Assembly (NCBI GenBank): GCA_023539445.1
Contig: JAKCEW010000004.1
Span: 16,741-80,740, forward strand
DNA length: 64,000 nt
DNA from: Candidatus Terraquivivens yellowstonensis
Lineage (GTDB): Archaea; Thermoproteota; Nitrososphaeria_A; Caldarchaeales; Wolframiiraptoraceae
Direction of reading: 5' to 3'
Shown here piece by piece: positions 40,699 through 47,409 of this stretch (position 1 is the stretch's first letter; each line of letters opens with the position of its first letter). The notes under the pieces are model-generated. The model was not told where the DNA came from, did no database searches, and saw only the letters and a program-made list of their open reading frames with translations. A program made the position numbers and the translations under genes.

Positions 40699-41394
40699 TT
40701 GATGTCTATCAAAAGTTTATTTTTATCTAACGTCTTGACGGTTTTGATGAATAAGTTCGAAGAAGACTTAAAGAAAATAATTGCACTTATAGGCGATAGG
40801 TACGGCAAAGAAGTTGCGAGCAAGCTTGATGGTATGTATAAGAAACTATGCAAACTCTACGAGGCCAACATAGTTAAGATAAATCATTCTGTGATGGAGG
40901 TCGTATGTGCTGCCGACTTGGTACTCAAGGGTTATGACGTTGACGTTGAGCATAAACTCAATGATATACTCACGTGTGATGTGTACGGATTAAAAGGTGA
41001 CGGCAACATCATAATCGAGATAGAGACCGGATTCGTGCCTCCTGAACATGCACTCGATCCCAATACCTATCTCTTAGCTAGAATCGTCAGTAAGATAGCA
41101 AGGTACAGTAGTTTCGCGAAAAAGTTCGGCATTGGAACACCGCCACACAACATCGTCCAGATTCCGTATATATTCCTAAAACCACCAAGAGACAGAACTG
41201 AAGAAGAGGTGCTTCGTATTAAGAGAATTTGCGACATATACTACACGAAGCCGCCCATTACTATCGAAGAAATACTCAACGCAAGGCTTTGCATGATTTA
41301 CGTGATAAATGTTGATGAAGCAACTATTAGCGAGCTATCGCCACAAGAATACTACGAAAATGTCAAGCAATTGGTGAAGGTCATGAATGCATAA
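40699..41394 (+). CDS. Hypothetical protein
   Basis: 231 aa ORF with reasonable codon usage; no recognisable family. Confidence 0.3.
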   Translation: MMSIKSLFLSNVLTVLMNKFEEDLKKIIALIGDRYGKEVASKLDGMYKKLCKLYEANIVKINHSVMEVVCAADLVLKGYDVDVEHKLNDILTCDVYGLKGDGNIIIEIETGFVPPEHALDPNTYLLARIVSKIARYSSFAKKFGIGTPPHNIVQIPYIFLKPPRDRTEEEVLRIKRICDIYYTKPPITIEEILNARLCMIYVINVDEATISELSPQEYYENVKQLVKVMNA

Positions 41395-41439
41395 TTCTTT
41401 GTACCTGATACCGTTCAGGCATTTTTATTTCGTAAAATT

Positions 41440-41647
41440 GCGTCGTCTTTCGGAGACGGCGGGCCTCCCTGCTAGGGCACCCTCCGCGGGTTTAACCCCT
41501 AGTGCCCTACGGGCACCTCCCACCCATACCCAGTTTGAGGGAACTGCCGAGGCAGCCCCCGGAGCACTGGGCATGGGTCGACGCTACAACGCCTGAGGCT
41601 TCCCCCAGACGTTGCTTAACGTCGGCCTCTCCTTTTCCGGACGACGC
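41440..41647 (-). ncRNA. Candidate structured non-coding RNA (~208 nt GC-rich island closed by a perfect 8-bp terminal helix GCGUCGUC/GACGACGC); class unknown
   Basis: Sharp GC spike in otherwise AT-rich non-coding DNA. It forms a terminal helix plus at least five internal hairpins (e.g. GUGCCC-UAC-GGGCAC, GACGUU-GCUU-AACGUC, CUGC-CGAG-GCAG). Strand chosen because a TATAAAT box sits ~25 nt upstream on the minus strand (plus coords ~41676-41682) and a U-run follows on that strand; plus-strand transcription is not excluded. Confidence 0.35.
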
Positions 41648-41853
41648 AGAATAAAGTGATAACGTACCCTGATTTATACATTTCACTCTAAAATAGTAAA
41701 AACATTACTTCATGATTGTAACGACAGAAAAATTTTGGAAATTTGTACAAAGATAACCGTCAAGAAAATCCTAAAGTTTGACATATCTTTTGCTTTTTGA
41801 AAAATACACTGGTGGCAATTCTGAATTGCCAATTTATATTAGAAATTGTAGGT

Positions 41854-42936
41854 TTATGCAGCTACTTTTATCATTTCAACCTTTATTTTTTCGTAGAGAC
41901 GTTTTCTAAGCCAGAGCGCTACGTTTACCAGCGAAATCATCACAGGAACCTCTATTAAGGGACCGATCACCGTAGCAAAAGCCTCCTTGGATGCCAAGCC
42001 AAAAACGGACACAGCTACAGCTATCGCGAGTTCAAAGTTGTTGCTTGCTGCCGTAAAAGCCAGAGAGGTCACCCTACTGTAGTCAAGGCCTGATTTATAG
42101 CCGATGAAGAAGGATATAAGGAACATTATAACAAAATAAGAAAGCAGAGGCATCGCTATCCTCGCAACGTCCATCGGAAGGGTAACTATGTACTCGCCTT
42201 TCAAGGAAAACATCACGACTATCGTGAACAAAAGGGCAAAAAGCGACGTTGGCCCGAGTTTCGGCATAAGGACCCTATCGTACCATTCCCTACCCTTCTT
42301 TTTAAGGAAATAGAAGCGCGTTAGCATCCCGCCAAAGAACGGTATGCCAAGGTATATGAGGACTGATGTAGCGACCTCTACGAAGGATATTTCAACTACC
42401 GTGCCGGTTCCAGCAATCCAAGAGCTTACGAGGGTAATATAGAAGTAGGCGTAAACAGAGTACAACGCTATCTGAAAGACCGAGTTCAGGGCAACGAGGA
42501 TTGCGGCCCACTCCCTATCACCATCGGCAAGGTCGTTCCAGACAATAACCATCGCTATACACCTTGCCAAACCCACTAGGATTATGCCATTTCTGAACTC
42601 AGGAAAGTCCGCAAGGAATATCCATGCAAGGATGAACATAAGAAACGGACCTACCAAATAGTTGAGTATAAGCGACTCTGTAAGCATGATCTTCGACCCT
42701 CTAGCCGTGATTATCTTCCTAAGTTCCTCGTACCTTACTTTGGCAAGGGGCGGATACATCATCCAAATAAGGCCCAGCGCTATAGGAATAGAGGTCGTTC
42801 CTATGCTCAGCTGGCCCAGCACGTCGGCAATTCCTGGAAAGACATAACCTAAGCCTACGCCGATTACCATTGCTAAGAAAATCCAAAGTGTTAAAAATTT
42901 GCTTAAAATTGGTAGTCCAGCTTTTTGTTCGGCCAT
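41854..42936 (-). CDS. acr3: Arsenite efflux transporter, ACR3 family
   Basis: 360 aa polytopic membrane protein with ACR3-like N-terminal segment ([18 protein letters not shown]...) and ~10 TM helices. Confidence 0.75.
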
Positions 42937-43081
42937 ACCAGATGCACCGTCTGGATTTTATCGCGTTTTTATCCGAGGGGAAAATATAAACCTAATAATG
43001 TCGCATGGATGCCGCACTTCTTTCTATGCTCATCGTTGCCATAAATTAAAAGAGGAGAGTGCAATGAACCCGTTTGTGGAG

Positions 43082-43165
43082 TGCCGGGGCTGGGATTCGA
43101 ACCCAGGATGGCCTACGCCAGTGGGTCTTGAGCCCACCCCCTTGACCAGGCTCGGGTACCCCGGC
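43082..43165 (-). tRNA. tRNA-Leu (anticodon CAA), class II with 14-nt variable arm
   Basis: Manual fold: acceptor GCCGGGG/CCCCGGC + A73, anticodon arm GTGGG-CTCAAGA-CCCAC, long variable arm, T-arm CTGGG-TTCGAAT-CCCAG; no encoded CCA. Confidence 0.8.
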
Positions 43166-44105: not shown

Positions 44106-44783
44106 GTGTCAAAGACGATGTTTGGGTATGAGATGAATGGAAGTAGATTCCTAAAGACGGGGACCACAACGGTAGGTCTGGTCATAAAGGATGCTGTGGT
44201 GTTTGCCACGGACACTAGGGTTACGTCGGGTTATTTTATAGCCCATAAAAAAGGAAGAAAGCTCTTCCCGCTAGCGGATCATGTAGCTATAACGATCGCG
44301 GGCAGGGTTGCCGATGCGCAGAACATTATAGATACGCTCCGCGCCAACATCAATTACTATCAAATACAATGGGCAAGGCGCATGGAAGTCGTATCCGTAG
44401 CCAGGCTCGCCTCGAACATCCTGTTCAGCAACAGGTACTTTCCGTTGATAGCACAGCTGATAATAGGTGGTGTGGATAGTCAGGGACCTCATCTTTACAA
44501 CTTAGACCCGACGGGTTCGATGACAGAAGAGCTTATGATCGCAACAGGCTCGGGCTCTCCTGTCGCGTACGGCATAATCGAGTCGAGCTATAGGCCGGAC
44601 TTAGGGCTCGAGGAAGGAATTAGGTTGGCCTTTAAGAGCGTCGCATCAGCCATCAGGAGGGACATCGGTTCAGGAGACAGCATTGATGTAGCGTACATCA
44701 CCGCTACCAAACCTTATACTGAGTTAACGCTAGAAGAGAAAGCACCACTTTATGAGGAATTCCTGAAAATCAACGTTAAATAA
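44106..44783 (+). CDS. psmB: Proteasome subunit beta (with propeptide)
   Basis: 225 aa; GTTTVGLV... (Thr1 after propeptide), typical Ntn-hydrolase beta subunit; start at GTG 44106 or ATG 44118. Confidence 0.85.
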   Translation: MSKTMFGYEMNGSRFLKTGTTTVGLVIKDAVVFATDTRVTSGYFIAHKKGRKLFPLADHVAITIAGRVADAQNIIDTLRANINYYQIQWARRMEVVSVARLASNILFSNRYFPLIAQLIIGGVDSQGPHLYNLDPTGSMTEELMIATGSGSPVAYGIIESSYRPDLGLEEGIRLAFKSVASAIRRDIGSGDSIDVAYITATKPYTELTLEEKAPLYEEFLKINVK

Positions 44784-44804
44784 AATGGTTTAAGGTGCAT
44801 CAGA

Positions 44805-46706
44805 TTGAGCGCAGCGGATAGACTCCGGGCAGAGATATTGAGGTACTTTTCTGTGGTTAGTCCTAGGGAGGCGGCTATTACAAGAATTGAGTATGAGGGG
44901 ACAAGGCTCGCCATATATACTAGGAATCCCGAGCTGTTCGTGGAAAGAGACCAGATCGCAAAAGACCTTGTGAACATACTTAAGAAGCGTGTGGTCATAA
45001 GGTCCGATCCCACGATAAGACTGCCCCAAGAGGAGGCGGAGAAGGTTCTCAAATCAATCTTCGGCGATGATGCCACTGTGTTCTTCGATGAAACTCTGGG
45101 AGAGGCCATAGTTGAGGTTAAGAACTCTAACGTCAACAAAAACGGGGAAACTATTAAGAACGCCTGTAAAGCGACAGGTTGGCACGTAAAGTTAGTTAGG
45201 AAAATGCTAATGCCTTCAAAGACCATTGAAAAGATTAACCAGTACATTTACAAAGATTCGGATAAAAGGCTCAGCATACTACGGACAATAGGTGAAAGGG
45301 TATTTGGGTCACAAACTTTTGAAACGAGTGACATAACGCTCACAATACTTGGCTCCGGAAGACAGGTTGGAAGATCAGCCATACTGCTCCAGACCAACGA
45401 GAGCAAGATACTGTTAGATTGTGGTGTTGCCGTTGGTTCCACGAATAAGCTCGATATATTGCCCAGATTTGATGCATATCCCTCAATCTTTGACGAGCTT
45501 GATGCAGTGATTGCAACGCATGCCCATCTCGATCACACCGGAGCCATACCTTATCTATTCAAGTATGGTTACAAAGGACCTGTATACTGTAGTGAGCCGA
45601 CACTGCCCCTTATGACGATGGAACAGTTAGACTTTATTAACGTCGCAGAAAAAGAAGGGTTATTCCCATTATATAATGAGAACGACGTGAAAACGGCGGT
45701 CCAGCACACTATAACCCTTAAGTACGGCAGCGTTACAAGCATAACACCCGACGTAAGGATAACGATGTATAACGCGGGCCACATTCTTGGCTCTTCGGTT
45801 GTTCATATACATATAGGCGAAGGATTGTACAACATCGTATACACCAGTGACTTCAAGTTTGAGAATACTAGGACGTTGGATGCATGCGCGCATAAATTCT
45901 TAAGAGCAGAGACGTTGATGATGGAGAGCACTTACGGTGCGACGCCGATACCTTTTACCAGGGAAGAAAGCGAGGCGTTGTTAGCCGAGTATATAAAGCA
46001 GACAATAGAGGCGGGCGGTAAGGTGTTAATACCCGTACCAGCTGTCGGTAGAGCTCAAGAGATAATGCTTGTCCTCAACGACCTTCTAAACTCAAAAAGC
46101 ATACCAGAGGTACCGATTTACTTAGACGGTCTTGTTATAGAGGCGACCGCAATATACACAGCATTCCCTGAATATCTTTCAAAAGAGCTGCAAGACATGA
46201 TGGAATCTCAAGGGAACGCGTTCATGTCAGACTACTTCACACCGGTAAAGAGCCATTCGCAAAGAGAAGAGGTACTAAATACTGAAGGCCCAGCTATCGT
46301 GATTTCCACATCGGGAATGTTAGAAGGCGGACCTGTGTTGAATTACTTAAAGGAATTTGCAAACGATGAAAAGAACATGCTAATATTCGTCAGCTATCAG
46401 GTAGAAGGGACTTTAGGCAGAAAGTTGCTTAAAGGCATAAGGGAAGTGTCATTTATAGATGAGAAGGGCAAGGCAGAAGTTTTAAATGTTAAGCTACGCA
46501 TAGAGAAGGTAGATGGGTTTTCGGGTCATTCCAGCAGACAACAGCTGCTGAACTATCTGAAGAAATTCACACCGAAGCCTAAAAACGTAATCTTATTACA
46601 TGGTGAAGTTAAAGCTATCGAGAGTCTAGCAGAGTCTGCCTCAAAAATTATTACGGCAAACATCTACACGCCAAAGAACCTCGAAACAATATCACTTTTT
46701 AGTTAA
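44805..46706 (+). CDS. aCPSF1 / FttA-type beta-CASP ribonuclease with N-terminal KH domains
   Basis: 633 aa; metallo-beta-lactamase HxHxDH motif (ATHAHLDHTGAIP), beta-CASP and RMMBL regions. Confidence 0.85.
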   Translation: MSAADRLRAEILRYFSVVSPREAAITRIEYEGTRLAIYTRNPELFVERDQIAKDLVNILKKRVVIRSDPTIRLPQEEAEKVLKSIFGDDATVFFDETLGEAIVEVKNSNVNKNGETIKNACKATGWHVKLVRKMLMPSKTIEKINQYIYKDSDKRLSILRTIGERVFGSQTFETSDITLTILGSGRQVGRSAILLQTNESKILLDCGVAVGSTNKLDILPRFDAYPSIFDELDAVIATHAHLDHTGAIPYLFKYGYKGPVYCSEPTLPLMTMEQLDFINVAEKEGLFPLYNENDVKTAVQHTITLKYGSVTSITPDVRITMYNAGHILGSSVVHIHIGEGLYNIVYTSDFKFENTRTLDACAHKFLRAETLMMESTYGATPIPFTREESEALLAEYIKQTIEAGGKVLIPVPAVGRAQEIMLVLNDLLNSKSIPEVPIYLDGLVIEATAIYTAFPEYLSKELQDMMESQGNAFMSDYFTPVKSHSQREEVLNTEGPAIVISTSGMLEGGPVLNYLKEFANDEKNMLIFVSYQVEGTLGRKLLKGIREVSFIDEKGKAEVLNVKLRIEKVDGFSGHSSRQQLLNYLKKFTPKPKNVILLHGEVKAIESLAESASKIITANIYTPKNLETISLFS

Positions 46707-47262: not shown

Positions 47263-47351
47263 GGGCCGGTAGATCAGCGGAAGATCGCGCGCCTGGCGAT
47301 CTCTCGCGACTAGATTGCGCGAGGTCCGGGGTTCGAATCCCCGCCGGTCCA
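47263..47351 (+). tRNA. tRNA-Ala (anticodon GGC) containing a ~16-17 nt intron in the anticodon-loop region
   Basis: Manual fold: acceptor GGGCCGG/CCGGTCC with the G3:U70 Ala identity pair, A73; D-arm GATC-AGCGGAA-GATC; anticodon stem CGCGC/GCGCG enclosing 24 nt (7-nt loop CTGGCGx + intron); T-arm CGGGG-TTCGAAT-CCCCG; no encoded CCA. Confidence 0.8.
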
Positions 47352-47409
47352 CTTAATCTTCTAATCGAGTCTGCAGAAGGGATATTTCAGATAACTGAAA
47401 GCTGGAATT

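Follow-up and report, generated by a model that had tools for sequence, protein, structure and literature searches.

The genome of the thermophilic archaeon Candidatus (Ca.) Terraquivivens yellowstonensis contains what is, with very little room for doubt, a genuine new structured RNA gene, situated in an AT-rich spacer of contig JAKCEW010000004.1. The gene was studied within a 64-kb segment of that contig (64,000 nucleotides (nt), referred to as the window, whose numbering is used throughout), where it occupies positions 41440-41647 of the minus strand and encodes an RNA of 208 nt with 66% GC; RNA position i corresponds to window position 41648 - i. The RNA belongs to an unclassified family, here termed family 1, that is absent from Rfam 15 and represents a new RNA class. 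The family is defined by a terminal helix (P1), an internal loop CGGRAAA/GAAA, a second helix (P2), a three-way junction, and an arm (arm A) with the apex GGGGGAAGCCUC; the window RNA matches the covariance model R1 over its full length with 225.5 bits, and all 13 other copies that were recovered share these features. We hold, with moderate confidence, that the product is a stable RNA that would act in trans and work with a nuclease-fold protein encoded by the convergent neighbouring gene.

The gene stands out by its composition. GC content is 0.65-0.67 across 41450-41649, 0.26-0.29 in the AT-rich DNA on the promoter side (41650-41899), and 0.45 in the whole window, and in a 100-nt profile the RNA island is the longest stretch of at least 60% GC in the 64 kb, with a peak value of 0.68, equal to that of the tRNA-Leu gene. 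The island lies within a 459-nt AT-rich spacer that is bounded on one side by an open reading frame (ORF) at 40699-41394 on the plus strand, and on the other by a gene for an ACR3/SBF transporter at 41854-42936 on the minus strand. The minus strand has a predicted folding energy of -125.9 kcal/mol (z = -7.7), which none of 200 shuffled sequences equalled, and the plus strand one of -97.3 kcal/mol (z = -4.3). An initial annotation, made by reading the letters alone, had described a sharp GC island in an AT-rich spacer, and the composition profile bears this out; the perfect 8-bp terminal helix GCGUCGUC/GACGACGC that it reported, and the GGAGA/UCUCC helix extending it, are both present in the sequence. 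Its length of about 208 nt was also right, although the exact coordinates, 41440-41647, are one base off the span that it implied.

Thirteen further copies of the RNA were found in hot-spring metagenomes and metagenome-assembled bins, in four sequence subgroups, with lengths of about 190-213 nt. The hosts are Ca. Terraquivivens and more distant relatives among the thermophilic Caldarchaeales (Aigarchaeota); Ca. Terraquivivens itself is placed in the Wolframiiraptoraceae, within the Nitrososphaerota, formerly Aigarchaeota, and the protein of the window clusters with proteins named Ca. Terraquivivens yellowstonensis. A search with ACR3 led to Ca. Terraquivivens ruidianensis (L001; ACR3 92% identical in amino acid (aa) sequence), where the arrangement is the same and the RNA copy is 87% identical, and the ACR3 loci of other Nitrososphaeria (L002-L005) lack the RNA. 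Homologues of the neighbouring ORF led to RNA copies at L081/L082 and L083 (85% nt identity), and two much more divergent copies, at L084 and L087, were recognised visually from their GC islands and shared end motifs. A pattern drawn from the RNA only (CCGGRAAAGG, gap, GGGGAAGCC, gap, CCGAAAG) was run in one scan over 241 million metagenome records and returned ten stretches: seven are real, comprising five window-like copies (L088, L091-L093, L095) and two distant members of the fourth subgroup (L094, L096), and three are chance matches in coding DNA. A third member of subgroup 4, L098, was reached through protein look-up. The RNA is single-copy in the window and at each locus, and a search of 2.9 million viral contigs gave no match to it.

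Each subgroup, when folded alone, yields one plan: P1 (7-9 bp across subgroups) is followed by an asymmetric and purine-rich internal loop (5' CGGRAAA / 3' GAAA) and by P2, which leads to a three-way junction from which arms A, B, and C extend. When subgroups 1-3 are aligned plainly with MAFFT, the RNAalifold consensus comprises 72 pairs, of which 25 have compensatory changes; in this alignment 94.5% of base-pair cells are paired, compared with 36-44% when the partners are slid by 1-3 columns, and the slid controls contain 2-9 double-change pairs in place of 25. When all 13 distinct sequences are considered, in an alignment that was fitted to the covariance model, double changes are seen in 50 of the 72 pairs and none of 500 shuffles reaches any observed measure; because the alignment of arms B and C is forced for subgroup 4, the claim across subgroups is founded on P1, P2, and arm A. 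Within arms B and C the sequences vary and the pairing is kept. The model R1, which was built from subgroups 1-3, recovers the untrained subgroup 4 with 30-39 bits (E-values of 4e-6 to 2e-8). Conservation and covariation of the helices among relatives, which the initial annotation had named as a check on its proposal, are therefore found, and far above controls. The chain of small hairpins that it had drawn by eye fared less well: on the same MAFFT alignment this pairing is 90.3% paired with 14 of 41 pairs doubly changed, as against 94.5% and 25 of 72 for the consensus, and its hairpins GACGUU/AACGUC, GCC/GGC, and GUGCCC/GGGCAC, for which L084, L087, and subgroup 4 have no counterpart, may be regarded as possible alternatives that are less supported than the long helices of arms A and C.

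The full-length match of the gene to R1 has an E-value of 2.8e-56, and its parts can be followed from the closing helix inwards, all on the minus strand. The 5' strand of P1, GCGUCGUC (RNA 1-8; 41640-41647), forms 8 bp with the 3' strand GACGACGC (RNA 201-208; 41440-41447), and compensatory changes affect six of these eight pairs across subgroups, the variants being GCGUCGUC/GACGACGC, AAGCCGCC/GGCGGCUU, GAAGCCAU/AUGGCUUC, and UGCAGGC/GCCUGCA. The internal loop that follows is almost unchanging. Its 5' side, J1/2 (CGGAAAA, RNA 9-15; 41633-41639), conforms to the consensus CGGRAAA, in which only the R position varies among 13 aligned sequences; its 3' side, J2/1 (GAAA, RNA 197-200; 41448-41451), is the same in 12 of 13, and the GAAG of L098 converts an opposed C-A to a C-G pair. 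P2 is formed by GGAGAGGC (RNA 16-23; 41625-41632) and GCCGUCUCC (RNA 188-196; 41452-41460), the latter strand reading GCC-G-UCUCC with one G bulged, and four of its eight pairs covary.

Arm A is a long hairpin (RNA 24-69; 41579-41624) comprising helices 3 and 4, with double changes in 15 of 19 pairs, and is crowned by the apex GGGG-GAAG-CCUC (RNA 42-53; 41595-41606), where the GAAG loop and its four apical pairs, one of them G-U, are identical in all 13 sequences. Arm B (RNA 70-126; 41522-41578) is likewise a long hairpin, interrupted by an internal loop and ending in a tip of the CUCG/UUCG type; helix 5 shows double changes in 12 of 13 pairs and helix 6 is 88.9% paired. Arm C (RNA 127-187; 41461-41521), as given by the RNAalifold consensus, consists of a GGG/CCC base, a CCC/GGG helix, an 8-bp helix (U139-C146/G168-A175), and the apex GGGGUUAAACCC. 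Helices 7-10 of this arm are 95-100% paired with double changes in 11 of 16 pairs in the model-fitted alignment, and the long helix has a homologous counterpart in L084 and L087. Two further matches were set aside, namely a CUCC/GGAG complementarity seen by eye in subgroup 1, which does not extend to L084 or L087 and is not claimed, and a Shine-Dalgarno-like GGAGGUG at RNA 128-134, which is not conserved beyond subgroup 1.

The signals that surround the gene agree with transcription of the minus strand. R1 scores about 225 bits on the minus strand versus about 26 bits on the plus strand, and the fold includes many G-U pairs, in whose place the opposite strand would have A-C. A promoter block, ACTATTTTAGAGTGAAATGTATAAATCAG (41669-41697, minus strand), contains a TATAAAT box at 41678-41672 preceded by AGAGTGAAA, which resembles a B recognition element (BRE); 24 nt separate the box from G1 of P1, close to the 25 nt or so that had been estimated by eye. 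The upstream block ACTATTTTAGAGTGAAA(U/C)GUAUAAAUCAG is nearly invariant within subgroup 1, counterparts of the promoter block stand at the same distance from P1 in L084 (CGAGTGAAAAGCATAAATC) and L087 (CGAGTAAAAAAGATAAATC), and subgroup 4 has TATA-like boxes at a similar distance. Given the spacing that is usual in archaea, transcription should start at 41648 or 41647, that is, 1 nt before the first base of P1 or at that base. The U-run that the initial annotation had placed past the 3' end is there as well (AAUUUUAC; UUUU at 41437-41434, minus strand, 2 nt downstream), and runs of at least four T occur downstream of P1 in 8 of 12 listed loci; it is probably an archaeal terminator. Given the promoter spacing to P1 and the U-run at the end, the primary transcript probably differs little from the mature RNA. 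The ORFs that can be called across the region had been dismissed as implausible, rightly so, as none of those at 41387-41596 (plus), 41502-41654 (plus), and 41507-41686 (minus) is conserved, L001 lacks any ORF of at least 60 aa over the corresponding stretch, and close relatives differ by indels of 1-2 nt across the RNA.

Comparison with known RNAs gave no relative. At gathering thresholds Rfam 15 reports two tRNAs only in the whole window, and at E <= 10 the region 41300-41800 returns nothing beyond chance-level matches (E 2.5-6.5), such as Flavivirus_SLIV, DUF1874 RNA, STnc410, and miRNAs. The diverged members L094 and L087 likewise gave only chance-level matches to Rfam 15 at E <= 10, and seven other loci searched at gathering thresholds contained no RNase P. 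This covariance search had been recommended at the outset, and its outcome leaves the RNA unclassified. Two identities had been suggested for the RNA. The suggestion of an uncharacterised structured RNA on the minus strand has been strengthened by homologues in four subgroups, by covariation, by the BRE/TATA block, and by strand-specific model scores; that of a reduced variant of the signal recognition particle (SRP) RNA or of RNase P RNA has to be given up, as no RNase P or SRP model of Rfam 15 matches at E <= 10 and the universal P4 and helix-8 sequences are absent.

Several of the rejected identities merit comment. The archaeal (RF00373), type T (RF02357), bacterial, and nuclear models of RNase P RNA do not match; the conserved regions CR-I (AGGAAAGUCC) and CR-V (ACAGAAnCCGGCUUA) are absent from the 208 nt, and GGAAAAG alone resembles J3/4. 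The consensus fold is fully nested, a putative P4 being a plain nested helix without a pseudoknot. There is nevertheless an outward likeness to the type T RNase P RNA of the Thermoproteaceae (RF02357; Chan, Brown & Lowe 2012, PMC3579882), which is also a GC-rich, stand-alone RNA of about 200 nt from thermophilic archaea, has a terminal P1, an A-rich joiner, and a helix closing a multi-helix junction, and was at first discovery also missed by existing models. Type T RNAs, however, retain the universal nucleotides of P4, P2/P4, and P15/P2 (PMC3579882); the universal P4 and joiner nucleotides are absent here, as is the P4 pseudoknot.

With regard to SRP RNA, no model matches, and neither the helix-8 GNRA tetraloop nor the conserved symmetric and asymmetric loops are present; the arm tips are GAAG, UNCG-like, and UUAAA, and a UAGCA loop in the window RNA is not conserved in L001, L083, and L084. 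The S domain of SRP RNA also has a helix with a purine-rich internal loop leading to a three-way junction (helices 5, 6, and 8), and its helix 6 is capped by a GNAR-type tetraloop, as an arm is capped by GAAG here. The family 1 RNA differs in having three arms at its junction and not two, in lacking an Alu domain and a conserved helix-8 GNRA loop or AGCA loop, and in its length, which falls short of that of archaeal SRP RNA by about 100 nt.

Guide RNAs of the H/ACA and C/D types are not supported, in that the RNA has no ACA trinucleotide, no UGAUGA, and no Rfam match to small RNAs (sRNAs). The loop between P1 and P2 is not a K-turn, for the tandem G-A pairs are missing from a loop in which CGG + RAAA stands opposite GAAA: position 1b is A in subgroups 1 and 4, position 2n is A and not G, and a first G-A pair is possible only in L084 and L087. 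For tRNA or tmRNA, ARAGORN finds only the tRNA-Leu and tRNA-Gly genes elsewhere in the window and nothing at the position of the RNA in the 10 RNA-bearing loci scanned. A riboswitch or 5' leader was rejected on the ground that at each of the 14 loci the next gene downstream is encoded by the other strand. An omega RNA (of TnpB or IscB) or other mobile-element RNA was rejected as well: the RNA is single-copy, has no viral match, and lacks a long variable unpaired segment, the neighbouring protein has a PD-(D/E)xK fold, and the homologue of that protein in the Nitrososphaerales is encoded in a ribosomal-protein operon. Among AT-rich hyperthermophiles, Klein, Misulovin and Eddy are said to have found the Hgc RNAs in 2002 by GC-content screens. 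These resemble the present RNA in being stable structured RNAs of unassigned function that were detected as GC islands in AT-rich spacers of thermophiles; here the RNA has no match to the HgcC, E, F, or G models of Rfam, belongs to the phylum Nitrososphaerota, and is accompanied by covariation and by a conserved protein neighbour. Literature searches found no description of the family 1 RNA or of this neighbour.

The neighbouring gene (40747-41394, plus strand), which is convergent with the RNA gene, encodes a 215-aa protein of the PD-(D/E)xK fold, the restriction-endonuclease type; its true start is probably the Met codon at 40747 and not the TTG at 40699. The initial annotation took it for an orphan hypothetical ORF, a description that has to be abandoned, as 2582 homologues are found at E <= 1e-3 in Caldarchaeales (Aigarchaeota), Nitrososphaerales (Thaumarchaeota), and Bathyarchaeia, with about 55% identity across phyla. 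The family, which falls into 253 clusters at 50% identity and consists throughout of single-domain proteins of about 200-240 aa, has no Pfam or NCBIfam model and carries only the label "hypothetical protein" in the databases; the sole match in a sequence-profile search against PDB chains, RPAC1, was non-significant (E 0.22). In the Nitrososphaerales (L104, L105) the homologue is found in the operon S4-S11-RpoD-L18e-L13-S9-[homologue]-RpoN-enolase-S2, and this placing among ribosomal-protein and RNA-polymerase genes suggests a role in information processing.

The nuclease-fold gene is convergent with the RNA in 14 of 14 loci, its stop codon lying between -63 and +63 nt from the RNA 3' end, and seven of these loci came from the RNA pattern alone. 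The genes farther out are not constant. Subgroup 1 has ACR3 plus a nitroreductase or a P-type ATPase in these positions, L087 another gene, and L096 and L098 a B12-binding protein with an M50 peptidase. At three loci the called 3' end of the nuclease-fold coding sequence (CDS) overlaps the P1 3' strand by 19-63 nt (L083:3643-3705, L084:3645-3663, L087:1079-1097); the long C-terminal extension in L083 looks like a gene-calling artefact, and the overlap in L084 and L087 may be genuine.

Three other lineages (L099, L107/L108, and the Bathyarchaeia L101-L103) have a different GC-rich RNA 130-300 nt upstream of the protein gene. This family 2 candidate (L099:2032-2198; L107:2077-2243, identical to the copy in L108; L101:2223-2375, of which L102 and L103 have near-identical copies) is about 155-167 nt long and is predicted to fold into a rod-like hairpin that has a terminal helix, with GCUUAAAC towards the 5' end and an invariant GGCUUAGAC towards the 3' end; its hosts are Bathyarchaeia and two further lineages, in three different gene contexts. 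It is probably divergent from the nuclease-fold gene: folding favours that (minus) strand in two of three lineages (about -90 versus -67 kcal/mol in L099 and L101, about equal in L107), and T-runs are found downstream on the minus strand in L099 and L107. No Rfam match to family 2 was obtained. Homology between the two families was considered and rejected, R1 scoring at most 3.5 bits with filters off, and the two are treated as unrelated. The fact that two unrelated RNAs adjoin one gene, in six or seven contexts, and that such neighbours are rare, is the argument for a functional tie.

A working model can be framed on these observations. Where part of a helix is invariant while neighbouring helices covary freely, a recognition site is usually indicated, and so the invariant internal loop and the GAAG hairpin of arm A may serve as recognition surfaces, which the covarying helices would only hold in place. 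The RNA would act in trans as the RNA subunit, scaffold, specificity element, or regulator of a ribonucleoprotein, and a protein would bind it through the invariant loop and the GAAG hairpin, the likeliest partner being the PD-(D/E)xK-fold protein encoded tail-to-tail with it. A guide-RNA role is unlikely, because the RNA lacks a long variable single-stranded segment. A wider proposal, which we put forward tentatively and do not ourselves expect to be borne out in full, is that the PD-(D/E)xK protein forms one half of a ribonucleoprotein whose RNA half has been replaced, or has diverged past recognition, between lineages, and which takes part in a core RNA- or DNA-processing step. The RNA half would be the 208-nt three-way-junction RNA in Terraquivivens-like Caldarchaeales, and the rod-like RNA of about 160 nt with GGCUUAGAC in the Bathyarchaeia and other lineages. 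In this respect the system may be likened to tmRNA (ssrA) and SmpB, where a structured RNA gene also stays beside one protein gene while the surroundings change; the differences are that there is no sequence or structural relation to tmRNA (ARAGORN and Rfam being negative), that the orientation here is convergent, and that the partnership here is a proposed one.

A number of points weigh against a partnership of this kind, or against parts of the evidence assembled for it. The case for the protein consists solely of gene adjacency, and the two genes are convergent and hence not co-transcribed. There is no RNA adjacent to the protein gene in the Caldarchaeales L085/L100 and the Nitrososphaerales L104/L105, and on account of these two lineages the RNA could be dispensable, encoded elsewhere, or unrelated to the protein. 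The members of family 1 may all share one family-level clade, in which a two-gene block could persist by descent. As regards the RNA itself, its ends and stability are deduced from the letters alone, the model-fitted alignment inflates the pair counts of subgroup 4 in arms B and C, and a search for conserved complementary windows of 3-4 nt among the unpaired columns, as might form a pseudoknot or tertiary contact, found none. Several of these points would be met by supposing a housekeeping or regulatory RNA that functions independently of the protein, the adjacency being inherited synteny within one clade. The separate promoters of the convergent genes, the protein genes without an RNA beside them in L085/L100 and in the Nitrososphaerales operon, and the small number of family 1 members, all from assemblies of metagenomes or public sequencing runs, several of them known hot-spring samples, fit this account. 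It is nonetheless rather unlikely, given that the pair has persisted in at least three contexts in which the genes on both outer sides differ, and that a second, unrelated GC-rich RNA adjoins the protein gene in three more; two such coincidences are not to be expected when unannotated structured RNAs are rare, the 64-kb window having one besides its two tRNAs.

Among the other explanations, an extremely reduced and divergent RNase P RNA, with P2 as a P4-like helix and with P2/P3 and the specificity domain lost, has some attraction. The size is that of a type T RNA, and the terminal helix followed by the A-rich GGAAAA ahead of the junction-closing helix is, in our own reading, reminiscent of a stripped catalytic domain; in addition, the tRNA transcripts of the window would need 5' trimming, since leaders of about 4-5 nt are predicted for them, and the 64 kb contain no canonical RNase P RNA, which says little. 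We consider it quite improbable in view of the failure of Rfam RNase P models to match the window RNA or its diverged members at E <= 10, the absence of AGGAAAGUCC and ACAGAAnCCGGCUUA, and the nested, pseudoknot-free form of the putative P4. That the sequence instead acts in cis on the convergent nuclease-like gene, regulating it by antisense action or transcription interference or serving as a structured insulator or terminator between the two converging transcription units, might be argued from 3' ends that are never more than 63 nt apart and from the overlaps with the called CDS in L084, L087, and L083. Yet 11 of 14 loci show no CDS overlap, neither an antisense nor a terminator function calls for a 200-nt three-way junction with invariant loops and covarying arms, and archaeal transcription is known to be terminated by T-runs and not by hairpins, all of which makes a cis element very improbable. 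Finally, the possibility that there is no RNA gene at all, and that the island is an ACR3 3' untranslated region (UTR) or regulatory element, a mobile or viral remnant, a small protein gene, or a chance accumulation of GC, can hardly be entertained. It is true that in subgroup 1 the island follows ACR3 on the same strand at a distance of 206 nt and that mechanically called ORFs overlap it, but the RNA has its own conserved promoter, ACR3 is missing beside it in L087, L096, and L098 and occurs without it at other Nitrososphaeria loci, there is a single copy per locus with no match among the viral contigs, the ORFs are not conserved, and the covariation far exceeds its controls. The partnership of the RNA with the nuclease-fold protein thus remains the reading that we prefer.

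The rest of the window offers a few observations on other genes. A GC-rich patch (0.64) at 270-390, on the window edge, is coding DNA and not an RNA: a gene on the minus strand begins there and continues beyond the window. In both tRNA genes, tRNA-Leu(CAA) at 43081-43165 on the minus strand and tRNA-Gly(GCC) at 47263-47352 on the plus strand, a TATA-like box ends 27 nt before the mature 5' end, and it is from this spacing that the short leaders are predicted. The tRNA-Gly gene is 90 nt long and ARAGORN places its anticodon oddly at position 29, on which grounds it probably contains an intron. At 44106-46706 on the plus strand a proteasome subunit gene is directly followed by that of aCPSF1/FttA, the archaeal transcription-termination factor with KH, metallo-beta-lactamase, and beta-CASP domains. 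RNase P protein genes were sought near the proteasome gene (44-54 kb) and none was found, a result that is uninformative on the type of RNase P.

To our knowledge, new families of structured RNA that are about 200 nt long and well supported are rare among Archaea, and those already known (RNase P RNA, SRP RNA, and the guide sRNAs) are all parts of core machines. The family 1 RNA is one that Rfam and genome annotation pipelines currently miss. Should it prove to be an RNase P RNA in radically reduced form, it would widen the limits within which that ribozyme is known. If instead the RNA and the nuclease-fold protein act together, they would constitute a new archaeal ribonucleoprotein and would provide a first functional handle on a conserved family of proteins that has so far been known only as "hypothetical".

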